From Escherichia coli (GTDB taxonomy: Bacteria; Pseudomonadota; Gammaproteobacteria; Enterobacterales; Enterobacteriaceae): a DNA stretch of 64,000 nt. The notes under the pieces were generated by a model. It made no database searches. It saw only the letters and a program-made list of their open reading frames with translations, and had not been told where the DNA came from. The stretch is from NCBI GenBank assembly GCA_902500005.1, contig GCA_902500005.1_3678.1. The stretch is one strand, 5' to 3'. The position numbers and the translations under genes were made by a program. Below are positions 12,583 to 42,531 of the stretch, one piece after another. Each line of letters starts with the position of its first letter. Position 1 is the stretch's first letter.

Positions 12583-14654
12583 TGGCAACAGCTGTTTTTA
12601 AACCTTACCGTGATTACTCTACAATGGCTGCACGGTTTCATTACCGAACAGTTCAGGATACTGCCGTTCCTGGTAGGGATTATGATCATGTCGAGGGCGA
12701 TGTAACTATCCCAGTTGGGGCAACCAGTATTGAGATCCCCGTGGAAATTGTTGACAAATTACCCAACAGGTTGCCAAGAAGCTTCTTTATGGAGTTTTCA
12801 TCAAAATCTCAAGGGGTGATGATTGGAACACAAAGGGCGAAATGTACAATAGTTTCAGATGAGAATCTTGACAGGATATCTTGGGATACTGTTGAGGAGA
12901 GAATGTTTCACCCAAGATATTGGGTTACAACCACTCAGCAGACTGAAAGTACCTGTATTGTTGCAGATAACAACTGTTGTATTAACCGTTTAGTGTCAAG
13001 AACATATGGAGGTATGGCTGGGTGCATTTGGGAAACAGTTGACAAGTATGACCATTTCGGTATTGGGTTTGATGATCACTATGAGATGAGAAACACCAAG
13101 CTTTGGTTCAGAATGTCAATAACCAACGCCAGCAACTTCTCCACTCCTGAAAAGATGATTATGACTGTAGACCTTGTTGATGGCACAATCATCTATGTTC
13201 CTTTAGCTCAATATGCTGTCAGCATCTCAGAGGATAAGAATGTTGCAGAAATTCATATTGATTTTGAGGACTGCGTCGGGATGGACCAGAACAACAACAT
13301 GATGGGTGTTGATCCTCGGCAGGTGAGAAGGATTTTAATACCGCTTATGCCTAAAGACTGGGTAAGTAATAGCACAGACCCGAGAACGGAAAATGTAGAG
13401 TGTGAGTTGCGCCTAGATCTGCTTCAGCCAGACACAGGCTGGAAAATGATGCAACTTAACAATATCCAGGTGAGAGAGCACGATGTTGGGATCTGCACCG
13501 CATATGACGATATGTGGAACGTGTCTCCTTTAAGGGTGTTGAACAATATCAAGCGTCTGGGCTATACCGGAACCATAAACCATTATGTTGGTATGAGTCA
13601 TTATTATGACTACACATGGTCAGGAACCCAATGGTCTATAAACAGAACAGGAGCGCTAAACGCTGCAGCTTATAAATGGCATGATGATTTTATGTACAAT
13701 GCCAAACGACATAACTTCGACGTTATGCAATCTGTAAGTTTTGAGCTTTTCAGCGATGCCTGCCCGTTGGAATGGACCCAAAGAGACTGGAACGATAACT
13801 ACGCTAAAACAGGGTATACACCTTGTAGCTACCTCCTGTCTCCAACCATTGAAGAGGGTATGAATTTCCTTACTGCAGTATTTAAGAATTTTGCATCAGC
13901 CGCTATGAGAAACAACCTGCCAGTGATTATGCAGGTTGGTGAACCGTGGTGGTGGTACAATACCGATACTCGTAGACCTTGTATTTATGATTACCCTACA
14001 AAACAGGCGTTTTATGATGAGACAGGCGAGTATGCATTAGATATTGGGACTATTGACGATCCTAAAACTGGCGGTGTTTACGATAAGTATGTAGCATTTT
14101 GTCGTGGTAAGCTTGGCGCTCGTATTGCGGCTATTTCAAAGGCAATAAAGGCACACGCTGCATCAGCTCAGATGACAGCTCTGCTGTTTTTCCCAACCAT
14201 TATGGAAACCGAGCTTACGCAAAAGCTTAACCTTGCTGACCAATATAAAAAGGAAGCAGGTGCTCTTGATTTCTTCTGCACCGAGTGCTACGATTGGGTG
14301 ATGCAGGGAGGTATTGAAAAGGCAAAAGAGTCTGTAAACATACCTATCGTTAAGTTAGGTTGGCAACCGTCTGAAATACAATACCTTGCAGGGTTCGTTC
14401 CTAGTAAAGAGCTTGCTCCGGTATATGGTTACGACCCAACCAGGAATTACCAAGAATTTTTATGGAGATGTATTTGCGGAAACATGGCAACTATAGAGTA
14501 TAGATATCCTGAGGTAAAACAGTATGTGTGGGCATACCCGCAAGTAATGTCTGACAGCATCACTGTTACCGCTAGAGATTCTACCGTGCTTCATATGGGG
14601 CAGGTTGCTCTGAAAGGGTATGTAGAAGATGTTGTCCCGCCAGACTTCTCATAA
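12582..14654 (+). CDS. putative tail spike / receptor-binding protein (690 aa), possible carbohydrate-active domain
   Basis: ATG overlapping upstream stop, AGGAGGG RBS; N-terminal Calx-beta/Ig-like motif (GDVTIPVGATSIEIPVEIVD); Trp/Tyr-rich C-terminal region. Confidence 0.45.
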   Translation: MATAVFKPYRDYSTMAARFHYRTVQDTAVPGRDYDHVEGDVTIPVGATSIEIPVEIVDKLPNRLPRSFFMEFSSKSQGVMIGTQRAKCTIVSDENLDRISWDTVEERMFHPRYWVTTTQQTESTCIVADNNCCINRLVSRTYGGMAGCIWETVDKYDHFGIGFDDHYEMRNTKLWFRMSITNASNFSTPEKMIMTVDLVDGTIIYVPLAQYAVSISEDKNVAEIHIDFEDCVGMDQNNNMMGVDPRQVRRILIPLMPKDWVSNSTDPRTENVECELRLDLLQPDTGWKMMQLNNIQVREHDVGICTAYDDMWNVSPLRVLNNIKRLGYTGTINHYVGMSHYYDYTWSGTQWSINRTGALNAAAYKWHDDFMYNAKRHNFDVMQSVSFELFSDACPLEWTQRDWNDNYAKTGYTPCSYLLSPTIEEGMNFLTAVFKNFASAAMRNNLPVIMQVGEPWWWYNTDTRRPCIYDYPTKQAFYDETGEYALDIGTIDDPKTGGVYDKYVAFCRGKLGARIAAISKAIKAHAASAQMTALLFFPTIMETELTQKLNLADQYKKEAGALDFFCTECYDWVMQGGIEKAKESVNIPIVKLGWQPSEIQYLAGFVPSKELAPVYGYDPTRNYQEFLWRCICGNMATIEYRYPEVKQYVWAYPQVMSDSITVTARDSTVLHMGQVALKGYVEDVVPPDFS

Positions 14655-14666
14655 TCAGGAGATAAA

Positions 14667-15707
14667 ATGTCAAAACCTAGTTTTCCATTAGAGATTTGGG
14701 CAGAGGAGGATCAGGTTCTGCCTAACACCCACAGACAGAACAGGCTACGCCCGATTGATGATTTGTGGAGAAAAGGTTGGGATCTTGGTCAAAAGCCCTC
14801 ATGTGAAGAACTTAACTATATTTTCAATATGCTCGGGACTTGGGCAAAATACATTGCTGACGAGCAGATCCCAGCTCAAGAAGGCCGTTATCTGGTACGT
14901 GATAATAACTTGAGCGATCTTTTGAACATTCCTGTTGCCCGTAGAAACCTTGGGATTATCACTAAGGAAGAGGCAGACGCCAGGTATGTAAAAGTTACAG
15001 GTGATACAATGACAGGCCCCTTGGGGTTGCAACGTATCAACTTTAAAGCTGCCGAGACAGATAAGGCTTGGATAGAGACAACTATTGGCCCAGATAAGAC
15101 AACCCTCGACTTTGGGTTAAGTGATAATACCGGGTCGTTTGATGATGGTGGTACATCTACAGTAGATGCGTTTCGTTGGAGATTCCAGCCAACTCAGCCG
15201 GATATTAATCCAGAGTTCACTTTGATGTACCTTAACGCGATCACGGCTAATCGTGCGCTGTTGAAAGTGGTAGGCAATGTTGAAGTTGTCGATAACATGA
15301 GGTGCAATAACCTTACTATCAGCAATACAGCAACATTCACCAACTGTAATGTGGCCAGTCAGTTGACGGCTGGGTCAGTATATGTTAATGGTGGTGCAAG
15401 TTGTGACAGTATGGTTGTAAGAAGCCAGCACTGTGTTGTCGGTAACAGAAATGTGGTGCGCTCCGTGAATGGAGTGACGGCTAACGGTAACGGTGATGTA
15501 ACGATCACTATCCCGCAGACAGGTGTGCAAGACATCAGAATCGGTGCAAGACTTGTGGACGGCGTTTCTGAATCTCCAATCCGCAACGGCTACGTTGTCA
15601 CAGGCTGGCATTTCGGTGACAAAAAAGAGATGCGTGGTTCAACCTACTGGGCAGGACCTTTACAAAAACTTGTAAATGGTCAATGGATCACTGTTAATTA
15701 TGCATAG
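14667..15707 (+). CDS. tail fibre protein, paralog A (346 aa)
   Basis: Paralogous to 16722..17765 along its length; C-terminal …QKLVNGQWITVNYA shared. Confidence 0.6.
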   Translation: MSKPSFPLEIWAEEDQVLPNTHRQNRLRPIDDLWRKGWDLGQKPSCEELNYIFNMLGTWAKYIADEQIPAQEGRYLVRDNNLSDLLNIPVARRNLGIITKEEADARYVKVTGDTMTGPLGLQRINFKAAETDKAWIETTIGPDKTTLDFGLSDNTGSFDDGGTSTVDAFRWRFQPTQPDINPEFTLMYLNAITANRALLKVVGNVEVVDNMRCNNLTISNTATFTNCNVASQLTAGSVYVNGGASCDSMVVRSQHCVVGNRNVVRSVNGVTANGNGDVTITIPQTGVQDIRIGARLVDGVSESPIRNGYVVTGWHFGDKKEMRGSTYWAGPLQKLVNGQWITVNYA

Positions 15708-34870: not shown

Positions 34871-35140
34871 ATGTTATACCAGCAATATGAACTTCGTGCA
34901 GAAAAAGAGTTAAATTTTGACAAAGATATTCACAGATATTATTATGGGAAAGTTAGAGGGCAAGCAAGAAAGTGTACTCCAACACTCTTTTATGCCAGCA
35001 GACGACTAGCGCCAGAAGAGGCAACAGCAGAAAGGGTTGCGTACAACTGGAGAGTCACGTATGATATTGACAGATTCGATGTGATATCTGTTTTGGAAAA
35101 CTTTGAAAACACTTACACACAAGTAGAGGACTTTTACTAA
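34871..35140 (+). CDS. hypothetical protein (89 aa)
   Basis: ATG with GGAG RBS. Confidence 0.4.
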   Translation: MLYQQYELRAEKELNFDKDIHRYYYGKVRGQARKCTPTLFYASRRLAPEEATAERVAYNWRVTYDIDRFDVISVLENFENTYTQVEDFY

Positions 35141-36324
35141 TGTCAAGAAACGTATTCGAAAGTGGTCAAATCACTGTCCGTGAGTTGCCAGCTATTATTC
35201 AGTTTGCCCAACGTCATAGCCGATCTGTCCTAATTTTGGGACCAATGGGTGTGGGTAAAAGCCAGGTGATGAAGCAGATCGCTGATAATATGTTCGGTGA
35301 GCGAGATGACAACCTTGTTGACGTGCGACTGTCAGATAAAGATCCTGCCGACTTATCTGGGCTACCTATCCCTGTAGAAGCGGATGGAACTACACGTACA
35401 GTGTTTGCAATTCCAGAATTTTGGCCTGCGGATCCTGACTGGAGCGGAATTATCTTTCTGGATGAGCTCACTCATGCAGATAACTACCTGCAAAAGGTTG
35501 CAATGCAAATTATGCTTGACCACAAGTGCGGCACCTATGCATTCCCTAAGGGTTCTGTTTTTGTGGCTGCGGGTAACCGTTCTACAGATGGTGCGGTTCT
35601 TTCGGCGCTCGAAGCCCCTCTGGCTAACCGTTTTATCATTGTAGAGGTTACAAGCAATGCAGAGGTGTTTATTGAGGACTACGCATTCCTTAATGGGGTG
35701 CATTCCTCTGTAATTGGATATTTGAAAAGAGTTCCATCAGCTATTGATAATTATGAGGCTATGGCTGAGATTAATTGTCCATCTTTTGCCACACCACGAT
35801 CTTGGGTTGCTGCATCTGACATCTTGCACGATTTTGACAGCGGTATTATTTCTGACGCTATGGCCCGTGTTCTTCTGCAAGGTGCTATTGGTCACACTGC
35901 AGCGGTAGAGATCTGGACATACCACACCAAGAAACGCAATTTACCGGAAATCGGTCGGATTATGGCAGGTGGCTGCAAAGAATACGTAGGTCCTAAGCAG
36001 CCAGACATTTTGTGGATTCTTGGATCTGAAGGTTGTATCGCTATTCGTAATATGATGGAAAATGCAAGTATCTCAGACGAAGATCTTGTCAGCTGCGTGG
36101 CAAACTTCCTCGATTTCCTTTGGGAAAACTTCAAGGACGAGAACCGAGATTTTGTATTCTCAGTCTTTATGGCGATGATGAAACCTAATGCCTTAGGAAA
36201 TGCCTTGCTTATCGGTAAAGGGCGTGACAAGATTGTTGCTCAGCTGATCAAAGCATACCCAAACCTGATGAAGATTGTAAAAGAGTTTGGTGAAGAGTTT
36301 AGCGCCATTTTGGCTAAAGCTTAA
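35140..36324 (+). CDS. AAA+ ATPase, MoxR/CbbQ (AAA_5) type
   Basis: Walker A ILGPMGVGKSQ; Walker B IIFLDELTHA; sensor-1 VFVAAGNRS. Confidence 0.75.
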   Translation: MSRNVFESGQITVRELPAIIQFAQRHSRSVLILGPMGVGKSQVMKQIADNMFGERDDNLVDVRLSDKDPADLSGLPIPVEADGTTRTVFAIPEFWPADPDWSGIIFLDELTHADNYLQKVAMQIMLDHKCGTYAFPKGSVFVAAGNRSTDGAVLSALEAPLANRFIIVEVTSNAEVFIEDYAFLNGVHSSVIGYLKRVPSAIDNYEAMAEINCPSFATPRSWVAASDILHDFDSGIISDAMARVLLQGAIGHTAAVEIWTYHTKKRNLPEIGRIMAGGCKEYVGPKQPDILWILGSEGCIAIRNMMENASISDEDLVSCVANFLDFLWENFKDENRDFVFSVFMAMMKPNALGNALLIGKGRDKIVAQLIKAYPNLMKIVKEFGEEFSAILAKA

Positions 36325-36725: not shown

Positions 36726-36754
36726 CTCCCCCGCTTCGGCGGGGATTTTCTATT
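36726..36754 (+). terminator. rho-independent terminator
   Basis: cccccgcttcggcgggg hairpin + attttctattt. Confidence 0.5.
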
Positions 36755-36764
36755 TGGAGTCATT

Positions 36765-37265
36765 GTGAAAATTAAGATCTTTGCTATTATTTTGAGCGCA
36801 CTTTTATCGCTGCCTGTTGTTGCAGCACCAAAACAAAAAGTATATCATACTTGCAAGCCCTCAGATACTAAGGAAAACATTCTGGCATGCAATATCTACA
36901 GGGAGGCTAGAGGGGATGGCACGATGGGTATGCTGGCATCAGGGTTTGCCACACTAAACAGGAAATCTCACCCCAAATACCCAGACACTATAAGAAAGAT
37001 TGTCTACCAACCTAATCAGTTTTCGTGGACAAACCACGGCAAAACTTTTAAGGTGACAGAAAAAGATTCATGGGATCACGCTAAAAGTCTTGCAAAGATG
37101 CTTCTAAAGGTCTATAATAACAACCATGTTGCATACATGGCTATGGACATAACAGGTGGAGCAACACACTACCATACAACCAAAGTACGACCGAAATGGG
37201 CAAAAAAGATGCAGAGGACAGCTCAATTCGGGAGTCATATCTACTACAAGGAGCGCAATAAATGA
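36765..37265 (+). CDS. secreted SleB-like cell-wall hydrolase (166 aa)
   Basis: GTG start after GGAG; signal peptide MKIKIFAIILSALLSLPVVAAP; SleB-family motifs (IYREARGDG, ATLNRKSHP, VYQPNQFSWT). Confidence 0.55.
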   Translation: MKIKIFAIILSALLSLPVVAAPKQKVYHTCKPSDTKENILACNIYREARGDGTMGMLASGFATLNRKSHPKYPDTIRKIVYQPNQFSWTNHGKTFKVTEKDSWDHAKSLAKMLLKVYNNNHVAYMAMDITGGATHYHTTKVRPKWAKKMQRTAQFGSHIYYKERNK

Positions 37266-39244
37266 TTGTAAACAGTAATGAAACTAAAGCAGTACTAACC
37301 GGAAATATGGAGGTCACCAGGGGCTCAATTTCTCTGAACAAAGAGACTTTTGGGCTAATCATTAAAGGGATTTACGAAGATAAGGTGCTGGCAAGCTGCC
37401 GTGAACCAATCTTCAATGCTGTGGACTCTCATGTTGAGTCTGGACGGGGTGATGTACCGATCATCATTCACTCCCCTACAGACCTTGAACCATACTTCTT
37501 TGTGCAGGACGTTGGATTGGGCATGTCAGAAGAGATGGTCCGCAACACTTTCATGAACCTCGGGGAGTCAACCAAGCGCAACAGCAACGCTCTGGTAGGT
37601 AATAAAGGTGTTGGTTCAAAGGCTCCGTTCAGCATGGTGGACACTTTCGATGTTATCAGTGTGCACAATGGTGTTGAAAGCACATATCTATTGTTCTTGG
37701 ATCAGGGTATCCCAAACGTTACCAAGATCCGCGAGCGGAAGACTGAAGAGCACAACGGGGTAAAAGTTCAGTTCCATGTTAAGAAAGAGCATGTCCTGAA
37801 ATATCGCACTGCTATTGCGTCATGCCTACGCTATGCAAAGTTTCCGTTTACCGTTACCGACCCTATGACCAGTAAGATGCTGGAAGGTGACAAGGTTGAG
37901 GCGCAGTATCACTACGAGAAGGATGGTTGGAAAATGACCATCCTGAAAGGTTATACCAGCTCTGATGAGAGCCGTGTGGTGATGGGACACCAACCTTACC
38001 GCTCTAAGTTTCTGGAAACATTGACAGACTACCCTGCAATCTGTGTAGAGATCCCTATCGGGGATTGCAATATTAACCCTGGGCGCGAATGGACCATAGA
38101 GGGGCACGACGATGGTGGATTCCAAGAGCGTCTGGAGGCTTTTGTCAAAGAGGGTATCCGTCTTCGTGGGGCAGAAGTTGTTGCGGAATTGGAGACAGCA
38201 AAAACATCCTCAGAAGCACGTGAGATGATGAAGAACAGTGGAGTGTTCGGGCACATCTTCGGTAAGAATTTTATGTGGGACAGATGGGAAGAAACAGGGC
38301 TTGGCGACTTAGGCGATTGTGAAATTTTCGCTGGAGGCTTAAATAAAGGCCGCATAGGCTATGCTCGTTACGGAAAGTCGGAGTTCTTACGAGGTGTATA
38401 CCTTGTATTTAACGACGGAGATGGCAAATATAACCGAAATAAGTGTAACTATTTAAGCGAAATCACCGGACGCAACGTTTTCTATTGCCGGAACACGGAC
38501 CTAGTGAAAGAGTTTAAAGAGGCGGCACACCATCCGTTCTTTGCAGATACTGTCAAATTGTTATCAGAGCTCCCTCGCCGACCTGCGAAGAAAGGTGAAA
38601 CAAAAACTCATTACGAGCCAGGTTATTGGGTTAAAAAGCTTGAGAAGGATGGTTACTTCCGTCGTGAACGTATTACTAAGGCAGAGTTCAAGAAGATTAA
38701 GCACTGCATTCCTTATGAGGGTGATATCCAACGTGGAAGTTGTTGGCTGGGACAGCTGAGTAACATCTACCAGCAAAATTATGACCGTGTGCGTGCGGCA
38801 CTCCAGATTCCTGAAGGGGAAGACCTGTACCTGGTATCAGAATCCCGTCTGCTTTGGACTGATCCTGATTGCCAGTATGTTACAGAGAAAAATGTGGAAC
38901 ATTTGTTGAAAGAGGACGCCTGGAAATTCTTACTGACTCGCGCAGCAAATGAAACTTCATATGACAGCCTGTATAGACAATTAGGGAAAATTATCCCCAT
39001 GCAGGATTTTGGAAATTATCGGCCACATTTCCACAAGTGGGAAGGTAACACCGCGTGGAAGCACAGTGAGCTAAATCATCGTGCCAAAATCTTAATCGCC
39101 AACCGGGTTAAGTGCGGGAAGGCCTATATTGCAAGATTGGAAAAGAAATATCCACTTTTGAAGCATGTGGGCTTGAAATATTGGGACACTCCTGCTATGA
39201 TTGAATACCGTGAACTGATTGATACAAAGAATAACATCAAATAA
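37262..39244 (+). CDS. GHKL-superfamily ATPase (Hsp90/MORC-like), 660 aa
   Basis: Bergerat-fold motifs in order: N-box REPIFNAVDS, G1 VQDVGLGMS, G2 GNKGVGSKAPF; C-terminal two thirds unassigned. Confidence 0.6.
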   Translation: MIVNSNETKAVLTGNMEVTRGSISLNKETFGLIIKGIYEDKVLASCREPIFNAVDSHVESGRGDVPIIIHSPTDLEPYFFVQDVGLGMSEEMVRNTFMNLGESTKRNSNALVGNKGVGSKAPFSMVDTFDVISVHNGVESTYLLFLDQGIPNVTKIRERKTEEHNGVKVQFHVKKEHVLKYRTAIASCLRYAKFPFTVTDPMTSKMLEGDKVEAQYHYEKDGWKMTILKGYTSSDESRVVMGHQPYRSKFLETLTDYPAICVEIPIGDCNINPGREWTIEGHDDGGFQERLEAFVKEGIRLRGAEVVAELETAKTSSEAREMMKNSGVFGHIFGKNFMWDRWEETGLGDLGDCEIFAGGLNKGRIGYARYGKSEFLRGVYLVFNDGDGKYNRNKCNYLSEITGRNVFYCRNTDLVKEFKEAAHHPFFADTVKLLSELPRRPAKKGETKTHYEPGYWVKKLEKDGYFRRERITKAEFKKIKHCIPYEGDIQRGSCWLGQLSNIYQQNYDRVRAALQIPEGEDLYLVSESRLLWTDPDCQYVTEKNVEHLLKEDAWKFLLTRAANETSYDSLYRQLGKIIPMQDFGNYRPHFHKWEGNTAWKHSELNHRAKILIANRVKCGKAYIARLEKKYPLLKHVGLKYWDTPAMIEYRELIDTKNNIK

Positions 39245-39254
39245 GGAGACCAAG

Positions 39255-40460
39255 ATGATTTTCATCTACGAACATTTCAAAACCCGTAAAGAAGCACGAG
39301 ACCGCCGTGCAGAACTTGAGAAGAAGGGTTTCACATGTGCCATTGAGAAAGGCGACACAACCTGGACACTGGCAGTTGGTGCCCCAGAGTTGTTCGATCC
39401 TGACCGTGACAGCGTCTGCTACACCCGTGAGGATTTTGAAACCCGCGAAGAGGCCCGTTTATTTCGATACGGTCTGGAAGATAACGGTAAGTACGCTATG
39501 ATCTTAGATTTAGGCGAAGGTTCCGTTAAACGTTGGGGCGTGGTATACCCACTGTGTGTTGTTCACGGTGTGGGGTTCACTGGGGTAGCAATCAAGTCAG
39601 AAGAACCTTTAGTAGAAGTCAAAGATCCGGTGCTGGAGGTGGTGAGCAGTGTGTCTCAGCAACAGACTCGAAGCATCGAGCCTTTGGTAGTTATTTGTGG
39701 GGAACTCCTCCAGATCACCTGCAACGAAGGCATTTTTGAAATTCGCCGCAGCGAAAGTGAGGAAGTTTACCAGAAAGTCTTCGACCATATCTCTGTTCAG
39801 GAATATGACGAGGCAATTGGTGAAATCCTTGTCTGGTTGGAACGCAAGAATGAGTTCACCACACTTGCAGACAACCTGATCATGAAGGATGGTAAGCTCT
39901 ACTACTACGGTGTAGAGATGCGATCCACCATTGCAAAGAAAATTGAGAAAGATTATGCAGACGGAACACTGGATGACCGCTATGTGAAATTCCTAGTTCG
40001 CCTGCTACGCAATCCTTCTGCAAAATCTGTAAACATGCTCTACGATTTTATGCAGGCCAACGATATCCAGATTGCAGAAGATGGTCGAATCATTTGCTAC
40101 AAAGGGGTTCAGTTTAACGGCAGCAAGTGGGTGGATTGGCACAGTGGTAAAGTTCCACAATACCAGGGTGCTTTTGTATCCATGCCTCGTAACTTTGTAG
40201 AGGATGATCCGGAAGCTGCGTGCTCCTATGGCTTACACTGCGCCAGCAAAGAGTATGCAAAGAGCTACGGCACTGTAATGACTGTTATGGTTGATCCTGC
40301 AGATGTGGTTAGTGTGCCATACCAACACAATAGCGCTAAGTGCCGTGCATGCCGCTATGAGATTGTGGTAGCTCCGGAAGCACGCAAAGATGGAGACCCT
40401 ATTGAATATGTAGTTGATCGTGACGGTAACACTATCGACATTCTTTACGAGGAGGCGTAA
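39255..40460 (+). CDS. hypothetical protein with two N-terminal repeated small domains (401 aa)
   Basis: ATG after AAGGAGACC; residues 1-40 and ~55-95 are internal repeats (…TRKEARDRRAELEKKGFT… / …TREEARLFRYGLEDNGKY…). Confidence 0.5.
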   Translation: MIFIYEHFKTRKEARDRRAELEKKGFTCAIEKGDTTWTLAVGAPELFDPDRDSVCYTREDFETREEARLFRYGLEDNGKYAMILDLGEGSVKRWGVVYPLCVVHGVGFTGVAIKSEEPLVEVKDPVLEVVSSVSQQQTRSIEPLVVICGELLQITCNEGIFEIRRSESEEVYQKVFDHISVQEYDEAIGEILVWLERKNEFTTLADNLIMKDGKLYYYGVEMRSTIAKKIEKDYADGTLDDRYVKFLVRLLRNPSAKSVNMLYDFMQANDIQIAEDGRIICYKGVQFNGSKWVDWHSGKVPQYQGAFVSMPRNFVEDDPEAACSYGLHCASKEYAKSYGTVMTVMVDPADVVSVPYQHNSAKCRACRYEIVVAPEARKDGDPIEYVVDRDGNTIDILYEEA

Positions 40461-41830
40461 TGGAAAAAGGGCAGTATGATGTAGGCACAGATGCTGCCCT
40501 CGTTGCAATCATGAGCGGTGAGAATGTCTTCGTTTCAGGACCCGCAGGTTGTGGGAAGACGTACCTCATCAACATGATCCAGTCAATGTATGGAGACTCT
40601 TGCATAACGGTTGCCCCGACAGGGGTTGCCGCTTTAAACGTTAATGGAGCAACAGCACACCGAACCTTCGATCTTGCAGCAGGTGTGAGCATGGAGTCAG
40701 ACTGGACTGCAATAAGGGCAAAAACAGCAAAGCCTTTGAAAAGCAAGGCATTTACCATCCTAATTATCGATGAAATCTCTATGATCCGTGCTGATAAGTT
40801 TATAGAGATGGATAGGAAACTCCGCTTCCTTCGAAAAAATGACAAACCTTTCGGAGGCATACAGGTCATATTGTTTGGCGATTTTTACCAGGCACCTCCT
40901 GTTGTCTCTTCTATGGAGAAGGAAGCCTACTTCAACTTCTACCATACGGATCTGTGTTGCTATACCGAATCTTGGAAAGAGCTTGACCTCCACAACATAG
41001 CCCTAATAGATCAGTTCCGACAGGAGTCTATTCGATTTGCCACAATGCTCAACTGTGTTCGTGAAGGTCGCCGCATAAAAGAGGTTGTAGCAGAACTTAA
41101 TGCTCGCTGTTACAAAGGTGGTGTACCAACAGATGCTCTCACAATTTGCGCCACCAACAAACAAGCAGAGGAGGTGAACAGAAGGTTCTATGATGCCATC
41201 AACGCCCCAGAGAAGGTATACACTGGTGAAATGAAGGGTAAGTTTCCCTCCACCCTGCCAGTTGAGCAGGAGATGAAGTTGAAAATTGGCATGAAAGTTA
41301 TGATAACCGCCAACGATGTTGACCCGACGCACAAAGTACCTTATTATGTTAACGGAACACGTGCCACAATTGTTAAATTTAAGAACAAGGCAGTGGTGGT
41401 AGAGCTTGAAGATGGAACTCAGGTTGACATAGAGCAGAGGTTGTGGGAGAATAACGAGTATAAGCCATCTCAGAGATACAACATTGCAGAAAGGAAGATG
41501 GAGAAGTTTATAGAGAGGGTAGTGATTGGGTCATACAAGCAACTTCCTCTGAAATCTGGGTATGCCGTAACATCTCATAAAAGTCAAGGACTTACGCTAG
41601 ATTGTTACAACCTAGACCTTGGAAAGAACGGAGCTTTCTCTCCTGGGATGACGTATGTTGCTTTGAGTCGAGTTAAGACAATACAAGGAATAAACTTGTT
41701 GCGTCCACTAAGAGAAGTTGACATTATTGTTGACCCGCGAGTCGTAGAGTTTTACAATACAACATTCCCTGACTTAGACAAAATTGTCAGGAAAGATTTT
41801 GAAACCAGAGCAGAAGAGGGGGACGTATGA
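40460..41830 (+). CDS. SF1B DNA helicase, Dda/RecD/Pif1-like
   Basis: Walker A GPAGCGKTY; motif II IIDEISMI; motif V VTSHKSQGLTLD. Confidence 0.8.
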   Translation: MEKGQYDVGTDAALVAIMSGENVFVSGPAGCGKTYLINMIQSMYGDSCITVAPTGVAALNVNGATAHRTFDLAAGVSMESDWTAIRAKTAKPLKSKAFTILIIDEISMIRADKFIEMDRKLRFLRKNDKPFGGIQVILFGDFYQAPPVVSSMEKEAYFNFYHTDLCCYTESWKELDLHNIALIDQFRQESIRFATMLNCVREGRRIKEVVAELNARCYKGGVPTDALTICATNKQAEEVNRRFYDAINAPEKVYTGEMKGKFPSTLPVEQEMKLKIGMKVMITANDVDPTHKVPYYVNGTRATIVKFKNKAVVVELEDGTQVDIEQRLWENNEYKPSQRYNIAERKMEKFIERVVIGSYKQLPLKSGYAVTSHKSQGLTLDCYNLDLGKNGAFSPGMTYVALSRVKTIQGINLLRPLREVDIIVDPRVVEFYNTTFPDLDKIVRKDFETRAEEGDV

Positions 41831-42168
41831 GTTTGTGGAGAAATATAGTTAACTACGTGTGTGGCAATCCAACTCCTGAAGAGAAGGATGTTGTGATTCA
41901 CGATTTTACTAAAAGATCTCGTGAAAAAGATCTACTGCTGACAAAGGTGACTGATAAAGATCCTGCAGTAGGTGACTGGGCGGGTTTTGCATTTACATCG
42001 GACAAATACACCTTTAACAAAGGTGACTACCTTGTTGTGGATTTTAACGAAGACATCGAGGGTGCTGAACCTTACTATCAGACCCTTATTGTTGCAGGGT
42101 GTGTTGATCTCTCTGCAGGCATGCACAGTTTGATTCTTTTTGAGCTTGACTCTGAAGACCTTGAGTAG
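41827..42168 (+). CDS. hypothetical protein (113 aa)
   Basis: ATG overlapping upstream stop. Confidence 0.4.
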   Translation: MSLWRNIVNYVCGNPTPEEKDVVIHDFTKRSREKDLLLTKVTDKDPAVGDWAGFAFTSDKYTFNKGDYLVVDFNEDIEGAEPYYQTLIVAGCVDLSAGMHSLILFELDSEDLE

Positions 42169-42228
42169 TAAGATGTGAGTCTAAAGGGGAGGCACTCCTC
42201 CCCACAAAAACTAAGGAAGCACTAAACG

Positions 42229-42531
42229 ATGAAACGTTATAAACCATACACTTTTGAAATCGATTTCGAACTTGACGATATGTTTACTGTGGAAGCTCAG
42301 GCAGTTGTCCAGTTGCCAGACCCGGAGTGCCGTGATTCTGATGTTGACTATTACGGATTTAGACAAATTACCGATGTGCATGTTTACCGCAACGGTGAAG
42401 AGGTGGACTTCCACCAACTGCCAAACGATATGCGCCACTCAATTTACAAACGTGCAGCCCGTGAACTAGAGTCCTATCTGGATGCAGCGACGACAGCAGC
42501 TGCATTTGCCGAAGAAGTGGGAGGTTTCTGA
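42229..42531 (+). CDS. hypothetical protein (100 aa)
   Basis: ATG with AAGGAAG RBS. Confidence 0.4.
   Translation: MKRYKPYTFEIDFELDDMFTVEAQAVVQLPDPECRDSDVDYYGFRQITDVHVYRNGEEVDFHQLPNDMRHSIYKRAARELESYLDAATTAAAFAEEVGGF

Follow-up and report, generated by a model that had tools for sequence, protein, structure and literature searches.

What are the two genes that lie beside a helicase gene at positions 37262 to 40460 of a 64,000-nucleotide (nt) stretch of DNA from an Escherichia coli assembly (contig GCA_902500005.1_3678.1; hereafter the window)? The first encodes a 660-amino-acid (aa) protein with the motifs of a GHKL ATPase and the second a 401-aa protein with two N-terminal repeats. A preliminary description, made from the sequence alone, had considered such an ATPase not to be a standard component of a phage replication cluster and had suggested that it could be a DNA-remodelling, topology or anti-defence factor. 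Our analysis shows that the pair has a long history. It is very probably the rIIA-rIIB operon of a Vequintavirus (an rV5-like E. coli myovirus), an accessory counter-defence module that the phage can do without on naive hosts but needs in order to grow efficiently on cells with the lambda RexAB system. rII is the historic locus of Benzer's fine-structure mapping and of the triplet code. In the window, the two genes are placed as follows.

37262..39244, plus strand: rIIA, 660 aa, with an AAGGAG ribosome-binding site at 37248-37253 (8 nt upstream)
39255..40460, plus strand: rIIB, 401 aa, with an AGGAG ribosome-binding site at 39244-39248 (6 nt upstream)

Identity and function of the pair

The 660-aa protein matches the PHROGs profile phrog_612, "RIIA lysis inhibitor," with an E value of 1e-124 over aa 1-658 of 660, a match that takes in the C-terminal ~450 aa previously regarded as unassigned, and the 401-aa protein matches phrog_609, "RIIB lysis inhibitor" (E 1e-61). 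Direct comparison with the T4 proteins gave the same result. In BLASTP, RIIA is 28% identical to T4 RIIA over aa 1-198 (E 3e-21) and RIIB is 37% identical to T4 RIIB over aa 172-371 (E 4e-39), and profile comparison with hhalign extended these matches to aa 1-307 of RIIA (E 4e-38, probability 99.95%) and aa 151-373 of RIIB (E 2e-33). The DNA of the locus shares 99.6% identity with that of Escherichia phage MaxTheCat, and rV5-like genomes spanning the full query show at least 92% identity. The RIIB sequence does not differ from the "rIIB protector" of the type phage rV5 (100% identity). Because of this protein identity and the 99.6% DNA identity to annotated genomes, we assign the window to Vequintavirus. 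Most of the near-identical genomes label the pair rIIA/rIIB or "membrane integrity protector," an rII annotation is found in dozens of GenBank records, and several rV5-like genome records have been linearised to begin at rIIA, following the T4 convention. Thus, the rII locus found here is already known and annotated, and a near-identical ortholog has already been tested by experiment.

Structure and defence databases are in line with this identification. All 31 significant BFVD matches of the RIIB model are named RIIB-type or unnamed phage proteins, one of them labelled "Transposase." PDB sequence searches with RIIA and RIIB returned only noise (E of 0.07 or higher), NCBIfam gave only sub-threshold GHKL-type matches for RIIA (sacsin, HSP90, restriction enzyme) and none for RIIB, and the PADLOC defence profiles gave only 12.7-bit noise matches for RIIA and none for RIIB. 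Assignment of either protein to a phage topoisomerase subunit was not seen in the profile searches, which return RIIA and RIIB.

The function of the pair can be read from published work on its relatives. T4 rIIA and rIIB counteract the lambda RexAB abortive-infection system, which acts by depolarising the membrane and so aborting infection, and T4 transposon data agree with an anti-Rex role. According to one report (PMC11879866), CRISPRi-ART knockdown of RIIA/RIIB in the phages T4, MM02, EdH4, SUSP1, and N4 caused no defect on Rex-free E. coli and, in the same five phages, lowered the efficiency of plating on RexAB-expressing cells. EdH4 is itself a Vequintavirus, and we located its rII genes and compared them with those of the window. 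The RIIA orthologs are identical at 655 of 660 residues (99%) and the RIIB orthologs at 391 of 401 (98%), so that essentially the exact pair of the window has been tested against RexAB. That the window pair would be conditionally required on RexAB hosts and dispensable otherwise is well supported. Through the EdH4 ortholog, the anti-defence part of the preliminary proposal is supported; its topology part found no specific support. rII genes are also gaining new roles, as the trigger of a bacterial CARD/gasdermin defence (T6 RIIB triggers that of Lysobacter and is toxic if expressed alone; PMC10312443) and as a possible counter to QatABCD (reported for the RIIA/B of a Felix-like phage, whose authors proposed a membrane mechanism).

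Nor is the pair rare. In tblastn searches the C-terminal domain of RIIB was found in 2,873 of 50,697 phage records, in agreement with the published frequency of rII in phages of about 5%. The adjacent order rIIA-then-rIIB recurs in Straboviridae, Ounavirinae (Suspvirus), Schitoviridae (N4-like), Stanwilliamsviridae (a Streptomyces phage), and Herelleviridae (an Aerococcus phage), and in the N4-like phage the DNA helicase and polymerase genes lie a few genes 3' of the pair, much as in the window. The two genes are therefore conserved as a cassette in Vequintavirus and in these five families, and the view of them as a non-standard component has to be given up. A practical consequence is that a stand-alone GHKL ATPase gene with a partner gene beside the replication genes of a large phage should be tested first against rIIA/rIIB.

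Two groups of database records caught our attention during these comparisons. Sixteen unannotated "Campylobacter phage" records (MG0656xx, host C. jejuni, genomes of 128-143 kb) are ~96-97% identical to the locus; it looks as if the hosts were mislabelled or coliphage had contaminated the samples. In Escherichia phage BP9 (PP488543.1), the match breaks off after 89% of the query. Under it, beside rIIA/rIIB, the record annotates an "IS2 insertion element repressor InsA," a sign that IS2 may have inserted into rIIB or beside it.

Domains of RIIA and RIIB

RIIA comprises three regions, all encoded on the plus strand.

37340..37831, plus strand: Bergerat/GHKL ATP-binding domain, aa ~27-190, with the N, G1, and G2 boxes and an invariant S103-T104-K105
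37832..38182, plus strand: second domain, aa ~191-307, in the GHL transducer position, with invariant Y246, R275, and E276 (PGREW motif)
38183..39241, plus strand: C-terminal region, aa ~308-660, mixed alpha/beta, not alignable to T4 RIIA by hhalign

The Bergerat motifs noted in the preliminary description are all present (REPIFNAVDS at aa 47-56, QDVGLGMS at aa 82-89, and GNKGVGSKAPF at aa 113-123), and across 23 RIIA homologs their key residues do not vary: E48, N52, and D55 in the N box, D83, G85, and G87 in G1, and G113, G116, and G118 in G2. Pfam HATPase_c_3 matches aa 50-147 above its gathering score (E 2e-8). The GHKL domain of RIIA has been published earlier (PMC7824862). The region from aa ~308 to 660 is conserved within rV5-like and related phages. 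The part that RIIA has in common with T4 is probably a two-domain GHL/MORC-type ATPase, made up of the ATP-binding domain and the domain in the transducer position, and R275 in the latter is a candidate gamma-phosphate sensor. In the RIIA comparison table, the two values for each relative are as follows.

TRAP1/Hsp90: 19.2, 298
ParE 43 kDa: 18.2, 270
T6 topoisomerase II ATPase: 17.7, 266
MORC2: 17.6, 259
MORC3: 17.1, 253
MutL N-terminal domain: 17.1, 255

With TRAP1/Hsp90, ParE, MORC2, MORC3, and MutL all represented, the two-domain module shows no special affinity for topoisomerases. Two more specific identities were considered and rejected. A topoisomerase ATPase subunit (GyrB, ParE, T4 gp39, or Topo VIB) does not fit, since no Toprim or topoisomerase family was found in RIIA or RIIB at E <= 0.1 in Pfam and the partner is RIIB. 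The same threshold revealed no MutL C-terminal family in RIIA; MutL was dismissed because there was no MutL_C or related Pfam match and the GHKL-type matches in NCBIfam were sub-threshold. The absence of a GyrB-type Toprim or MutL endonuclease signature had been recognised correctly from the sequence.

RIIB is built from two repeats, a linker, and a conserved C-terminal region.

39255..39380, plus strand: repeat 1, aa 1-42 (aa 3-42 in the model), a beta-alpha-beta-beta unit
39411..39563, plus strand: repeat 2, aa 53-103, a beta-alpha-beta-beta unit
39564..39683, plus strand: linker, aa ~104-143, variable in length and sequence, with a model pLDDT below 50
39684..40457, plus strand: conserved C-terminal region, aa ~144-401, with PF26926 pre-annotated on homologs; the part in common with T4 is aa 151-373

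The two N-terminal repeats proposed earlier proved real: they match each other in BLASTP (E 1e-4), the motif F-x-[ST]-R-x-[ED]-A-R ... R-W-x-V is present twice in most aligned RIIB homologs, and the predicted structure (mean pLDDT of 72.5) shows two beta-alpha-beta-beta units, a disordered linker, and a confident C-terminal domain. For this C-terminal domain the model has no neighbour among solved structures. The repeats take the place of the helix-turn-helix (HTH)-like segment at the N terminus of T4 RIIB, which is not present in this protein; the hhalign alignment begins at T4 residue 87. The HTH reading of the T4 segment was made by eye and follows PMC7824862, and it applies to the T4 protein and need not hold for the family as a whole. 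A SPOR domain (PF05036) matches aa 8-42 weakly, below the Pfam gathering threshold and in only 2 of 21 homologs, and SPOR membership of the repeats was therefore rejected. A hydrophobic 19-mer at aa 95-113 (Kyte-Doolittle score of 1.69) is not conserved in homologs. Among the BFVD matches, those ranked 32, 36, 38, and 45 are phage proteins of 38-56 aa that superpose on one RIIB repeat with target-normalised TM-scores of 0.64-0.90 and non-significant E values of 0.06-0.3; judging from these models, some phages may also carry the beta-alpha-beta-beta repeat as a mini-protein of its own.

A physical partnership of RIIA and RIIB is supported by natural fusions. A 1,049-aa "RIIA-RIIB" protein of Escherichia phage RB43 (Q56C47) was found as a BFVD match. 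In addition, the phrog_609 profile has 1,055 positions, of which the N terminus matches the GHKL domain of RIIA and the C terminus matches RIIB; its length and its match to the GHKL domain of the window RIIA are explained by the existence of full-length fusions of this kind. The tight spacing of rIIA and rIIB here, each with its own ribosome-binding site, also counts in favour of partnership, as does the recurrence of the adjacent pair, always in this order, in the five families named above. Two further composite proteins were encountered. In the metagenomic protein P0103 (330 aa), the first ~60 residues are RIIA-like (…ETFGLIIKGIYKDPLLASCREPIFNAVDAHVEAG…) and the rest runs in register with the C-terminal ~250 aa of RIIB. 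From its sequence, P0103 would be a fusion of rIIA and rIIB that arose naturally by deletion and recalls Benzer's T4 r1589, or possibly an assembly artefact. P0036 (498 aa, on a 3.3-kb ENA contig) joins TPR repeats to a 99%-identical C-terminal half of RIIB and is probably a chimeric assembly.

Organization of the locus

The genes and signals around the pair are the following.

35140-36324, plus strand: MoxR-like AAA+ ATPase gene (phrog_1297, E 2e-110; Pfam AAA matches weak)
36729..36744, plus strand: terminator-like hairpin CCCCGCTTCGGCGGGG followed by a T-rich tail
36765..37265, plus strand: SleB/CwlJ-type cell-wall hydrolase gene, 166 aa (Pfam Hydrolase_2, E 2e-19), outside rII
40460..41830, plus strand: Dda/Pif1-like SF1 helicase gene, 456 aa, translationally coupled 3' of rIIB

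The junction sequences are tight throughout. The stop codon of the hydrolase gene overlaps the rIIA start (ATGA), the rIIB start lies 10 nt past the rIIA stop, and the rIIB stop overlaps the helicase start (TAATG). An alternative TTG start at 39219 would give a RIIB protein of 413 aa; the GenBank records and homologs use ATG, and we fixed the start at the ATG at 39255 because the AGGAG sits 6 nt upstream of it. The hairpin at 36729-36744 was the only strong motif of the terminator scan, and the scans for sigma-70 promoters and terminators otherwise stayed at background level; EdH4 carries an annotated terminator at the equivalent place. The hydrolase, rIIA, rIIB, and helicase genes form a tightly coupled operon, a single transcription unit whose 5' boundary is probably this hairpin. 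The preliminary description of the gene that follows as a Dda-like helicase was accurate (Pfam PIF1, E 1e-32; phrog_325 "Dda-like helicase," E 6e-112).

The N terminus of the SleB-type hydrolase resembles a signal peptide (MKIKIFAIILSALLSLPVVAAP), and its place in an early/replication region, overlapping the rIIA start, is an unusual site for the gene of a secreted peptidoglycan hydrolase. The MoxR-like AAA+ ATPase gene lies two genes 5' of rIIA, a position that is kept in phages isim and EdH4. On the other side, the window has a 60-nt gap (42168-42229), and no methyltransferase gene, between the 113-aa and 100-aa open reading frames 3' of the helicase gene. Between the same two frames, the records of isim (13969-15294) and EdH4 (88-1413) hold a Mod-type adenine methyltransferase gene of ~1.3 kb.

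Mechanism and comparison with known systems

How might the pair protect the phage from RexAB? With E48 as the catalytic glutamate and all ATP-binding boxes intact, RIIA would be an ATP-driven, probably dimerising clamp of the GHL/MORC type that works together with RIIB. In RIIB, the shared work would fall to the conserved C-terminal domain, and the N-terminal module would serve as an exchangeable targeting element, HTH-like in T4 and two beta-alpha-beta-beta repeats here. The pair may act upstream of sensing by RexA, at phage replication/recombination complexes associated with the membrane. Instead of directly plugging the channel of RexB, it would keep the signal to which RexA-type sensors respond from arising or from becoming exposed. 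Placing the action at these complexes is our preferred guess, a tentative one that we hold at well below even confidence. It is preferred in part because, to our knowledge, all characterised two-domain GHL relatives except Hsp90 act on DNA. It also draws on the HTH-like N terminus of T4 RIIB and the classification of RIIB as a transcription factor (PMC7824862), and on the position of the cassette beside replication genes (helicase, primase, polymerase) in two lineages, that of the window and the N4-like phages. Furthermore, rII modules that are less than 40% identical all counter the same lambda RexAB, which argues against a tight protein-protein lock on one defence protein.

Several observations weigh against this interpretation. 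Classical work reported the T4 rII proteins to be membrane-associated, and GenBank notes on T4 call them "membrane integrity protector." The repeats of the window RIIB are not HTH motifs, and their weak resemblance to peptidoglycan-binding SPOR domains does not fit a DNA-targeting role. There is no convincing transmembrane segment in RIIA or RIIB, which could therefore associate with a membrane only peripherally. For EdH4, the phenotype comes from knockdown, with RexAB expressed from a plasmid (PMC11879866), and recent papers still term rII "poorly understood."

These observations lead to the chief alternative, a possible and about equally plausible one, in which RIIA and RIIB sit peripherally at the inner membrane, downstream of sensing, and block or compensate the ion leakage caused by RexB or other depolarising effectors. 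The depolarisation by which RexAB operates, the T4 annotations just cited, the mechanism proposed for the Felix-like phage against QatABCD, and the SPOR likeness of the RIIB repeats, SPOR being envelope-binding, would all suit a protector of the membrane. However, that likeness is sub-threshold and confined to 2 of 21 homologs, the ligands of SPOR domains lie in the periplasm and RIIB lacks a signal peptide, and neither a transmembrane nor a clearly amphipathic anchor was detected in RIIA or RIIB; we also know of no precedent for two-domain GHL ATPases as regulators of membranes or channels. The older idea that the pair sets the time of lysis, together with the adjoining cell-wall hydrolase, is very unlikely, even though PHROGs files both genes under "lysis," product names include "RIIA lysis inhibitor," the start of rIIA overlaps the end of the SleB-type hydrolase gene, and the locus owes its "r" to the rapid-lysis plaque phenotype. 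Knockdown in the five phages, EdH4 included, left infection of Rex-free hosts unimpaired, and in other families the rII cassette shows no linkage to lysis genes. True lysis inhibition in T4 is carried out by rI, t, and rIII. The r phenotype of T4 rII mutants, moreover, depends on host prophage genes (GenBank notes). Still less probable, and largely refuted, is a DNA-topology or remodelling enzyme of the replication module, with RIIA as a topoisomerase- or MORC-like ATPase subunit and RIIB as its downstream partner. The position by the helicase, primase-helicase, and polymerase genes would suit such an enzyme, but Toprim is absent, RIIB is not a GyrA/ParC/Topo VIA-like partner, T4 has rIIA besides a full topoisomerase II (gp39, gp52, and gp60), and the rII genes are dispensable without Rex.

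The domain structure of RIIB suggests a further, still doubtful possibility. RIIB could be modular, and an effector domain at its C terminus, conserved and of a fold without solved relatives, would be coupled to an N-terminal targeting module that is exchanged between lineages. In rV5-like phages and their ~145-kb relatives, tandem SPOR-like repeats would replace the T4-type HTH segment, and the destination of one and the same RIIA-RIIB machine in the cell would vary with the lineage, DNA in one case and the envelope or another ligand in the other. If this is true, then, together with the clamp model (E48, R275), it offers concrete mutants and domain swaps for the 70-year-old rII question. Our additions to what is known of rII are modest, namely, the C-terminal domain of RIIB without a solved neighbour and the swap of its N-terminal module; along with the putative two-domain GHL ATPase of RIIA, they provide testable handles and leave the knowledge of the locus unchanged.

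Like the GHKL ATPases of the GHL/MORC class (Hsp90/TRAP1, GyrB/ParE, MutL, MORC2/3, SMCHD1, and Topo VIB), RIIA combines a Bergerat fold, which carries the N, G1, and G2 boxes, with a second domain on its C-terminal side. In contrast to members of that class, it lacks Pfam matches to Toprim, the MutL C-terminal endonuclease/dimerisation domain, CW, coiled-coil, and the Hsp90 middle and C-terminal client domains; sequence identity to them is only 11-16%, the C-terminal half is specific to RIIA, and the partner, RIIB, has no counterpart in their systems. The RB43-type fusions (Q56C47, phrog_609) combine a GHKL N terminus with the RIIB C-terminal domain, as the window pair does, in RB43 as one polypeptide and in the window as two genes 10 nt apart.

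Within Vequintavirus, rV5 (DQ832317), EdH4 (MK327930), MaxTheCat (MZ501094), and others have the same genes as the window with few substitutions, and the same neighbours in the order MoxR-like ATPase, SleB hydrolase, rIIA, rIIB, and Pif1/Dda helicase. isim and EdH4 differ from the window in the adenine methyltransferase gene, which lies two genes 3' of rIIB and outside the rII pair. The distance to T4 is greater. The T4 rII genes have other neighbours (topoisomerase II genes, denB, and ndd nearby), the C-terminal ~350 aa of the window RIIA have no hhalign-alignable equivalent in T4 RIIA, and the N terminus of T4 RIIB is HTH-like whereas that of the window protein consists of two beta-alpha-beta-beta repeats and a long disordered linker. 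Nevertheless, aa 1-307 of RIIA align to residues 1-311 of T4 RIIA (NP_049616), covering the GHKL and second domains, aa 151-373 of RIIB align to residues 87-306 of T4 RIIB (NP_049889) with 37% identity, the gene order is the same, and published tests of T4 and EdH4 found the same conditional role against RexAB.

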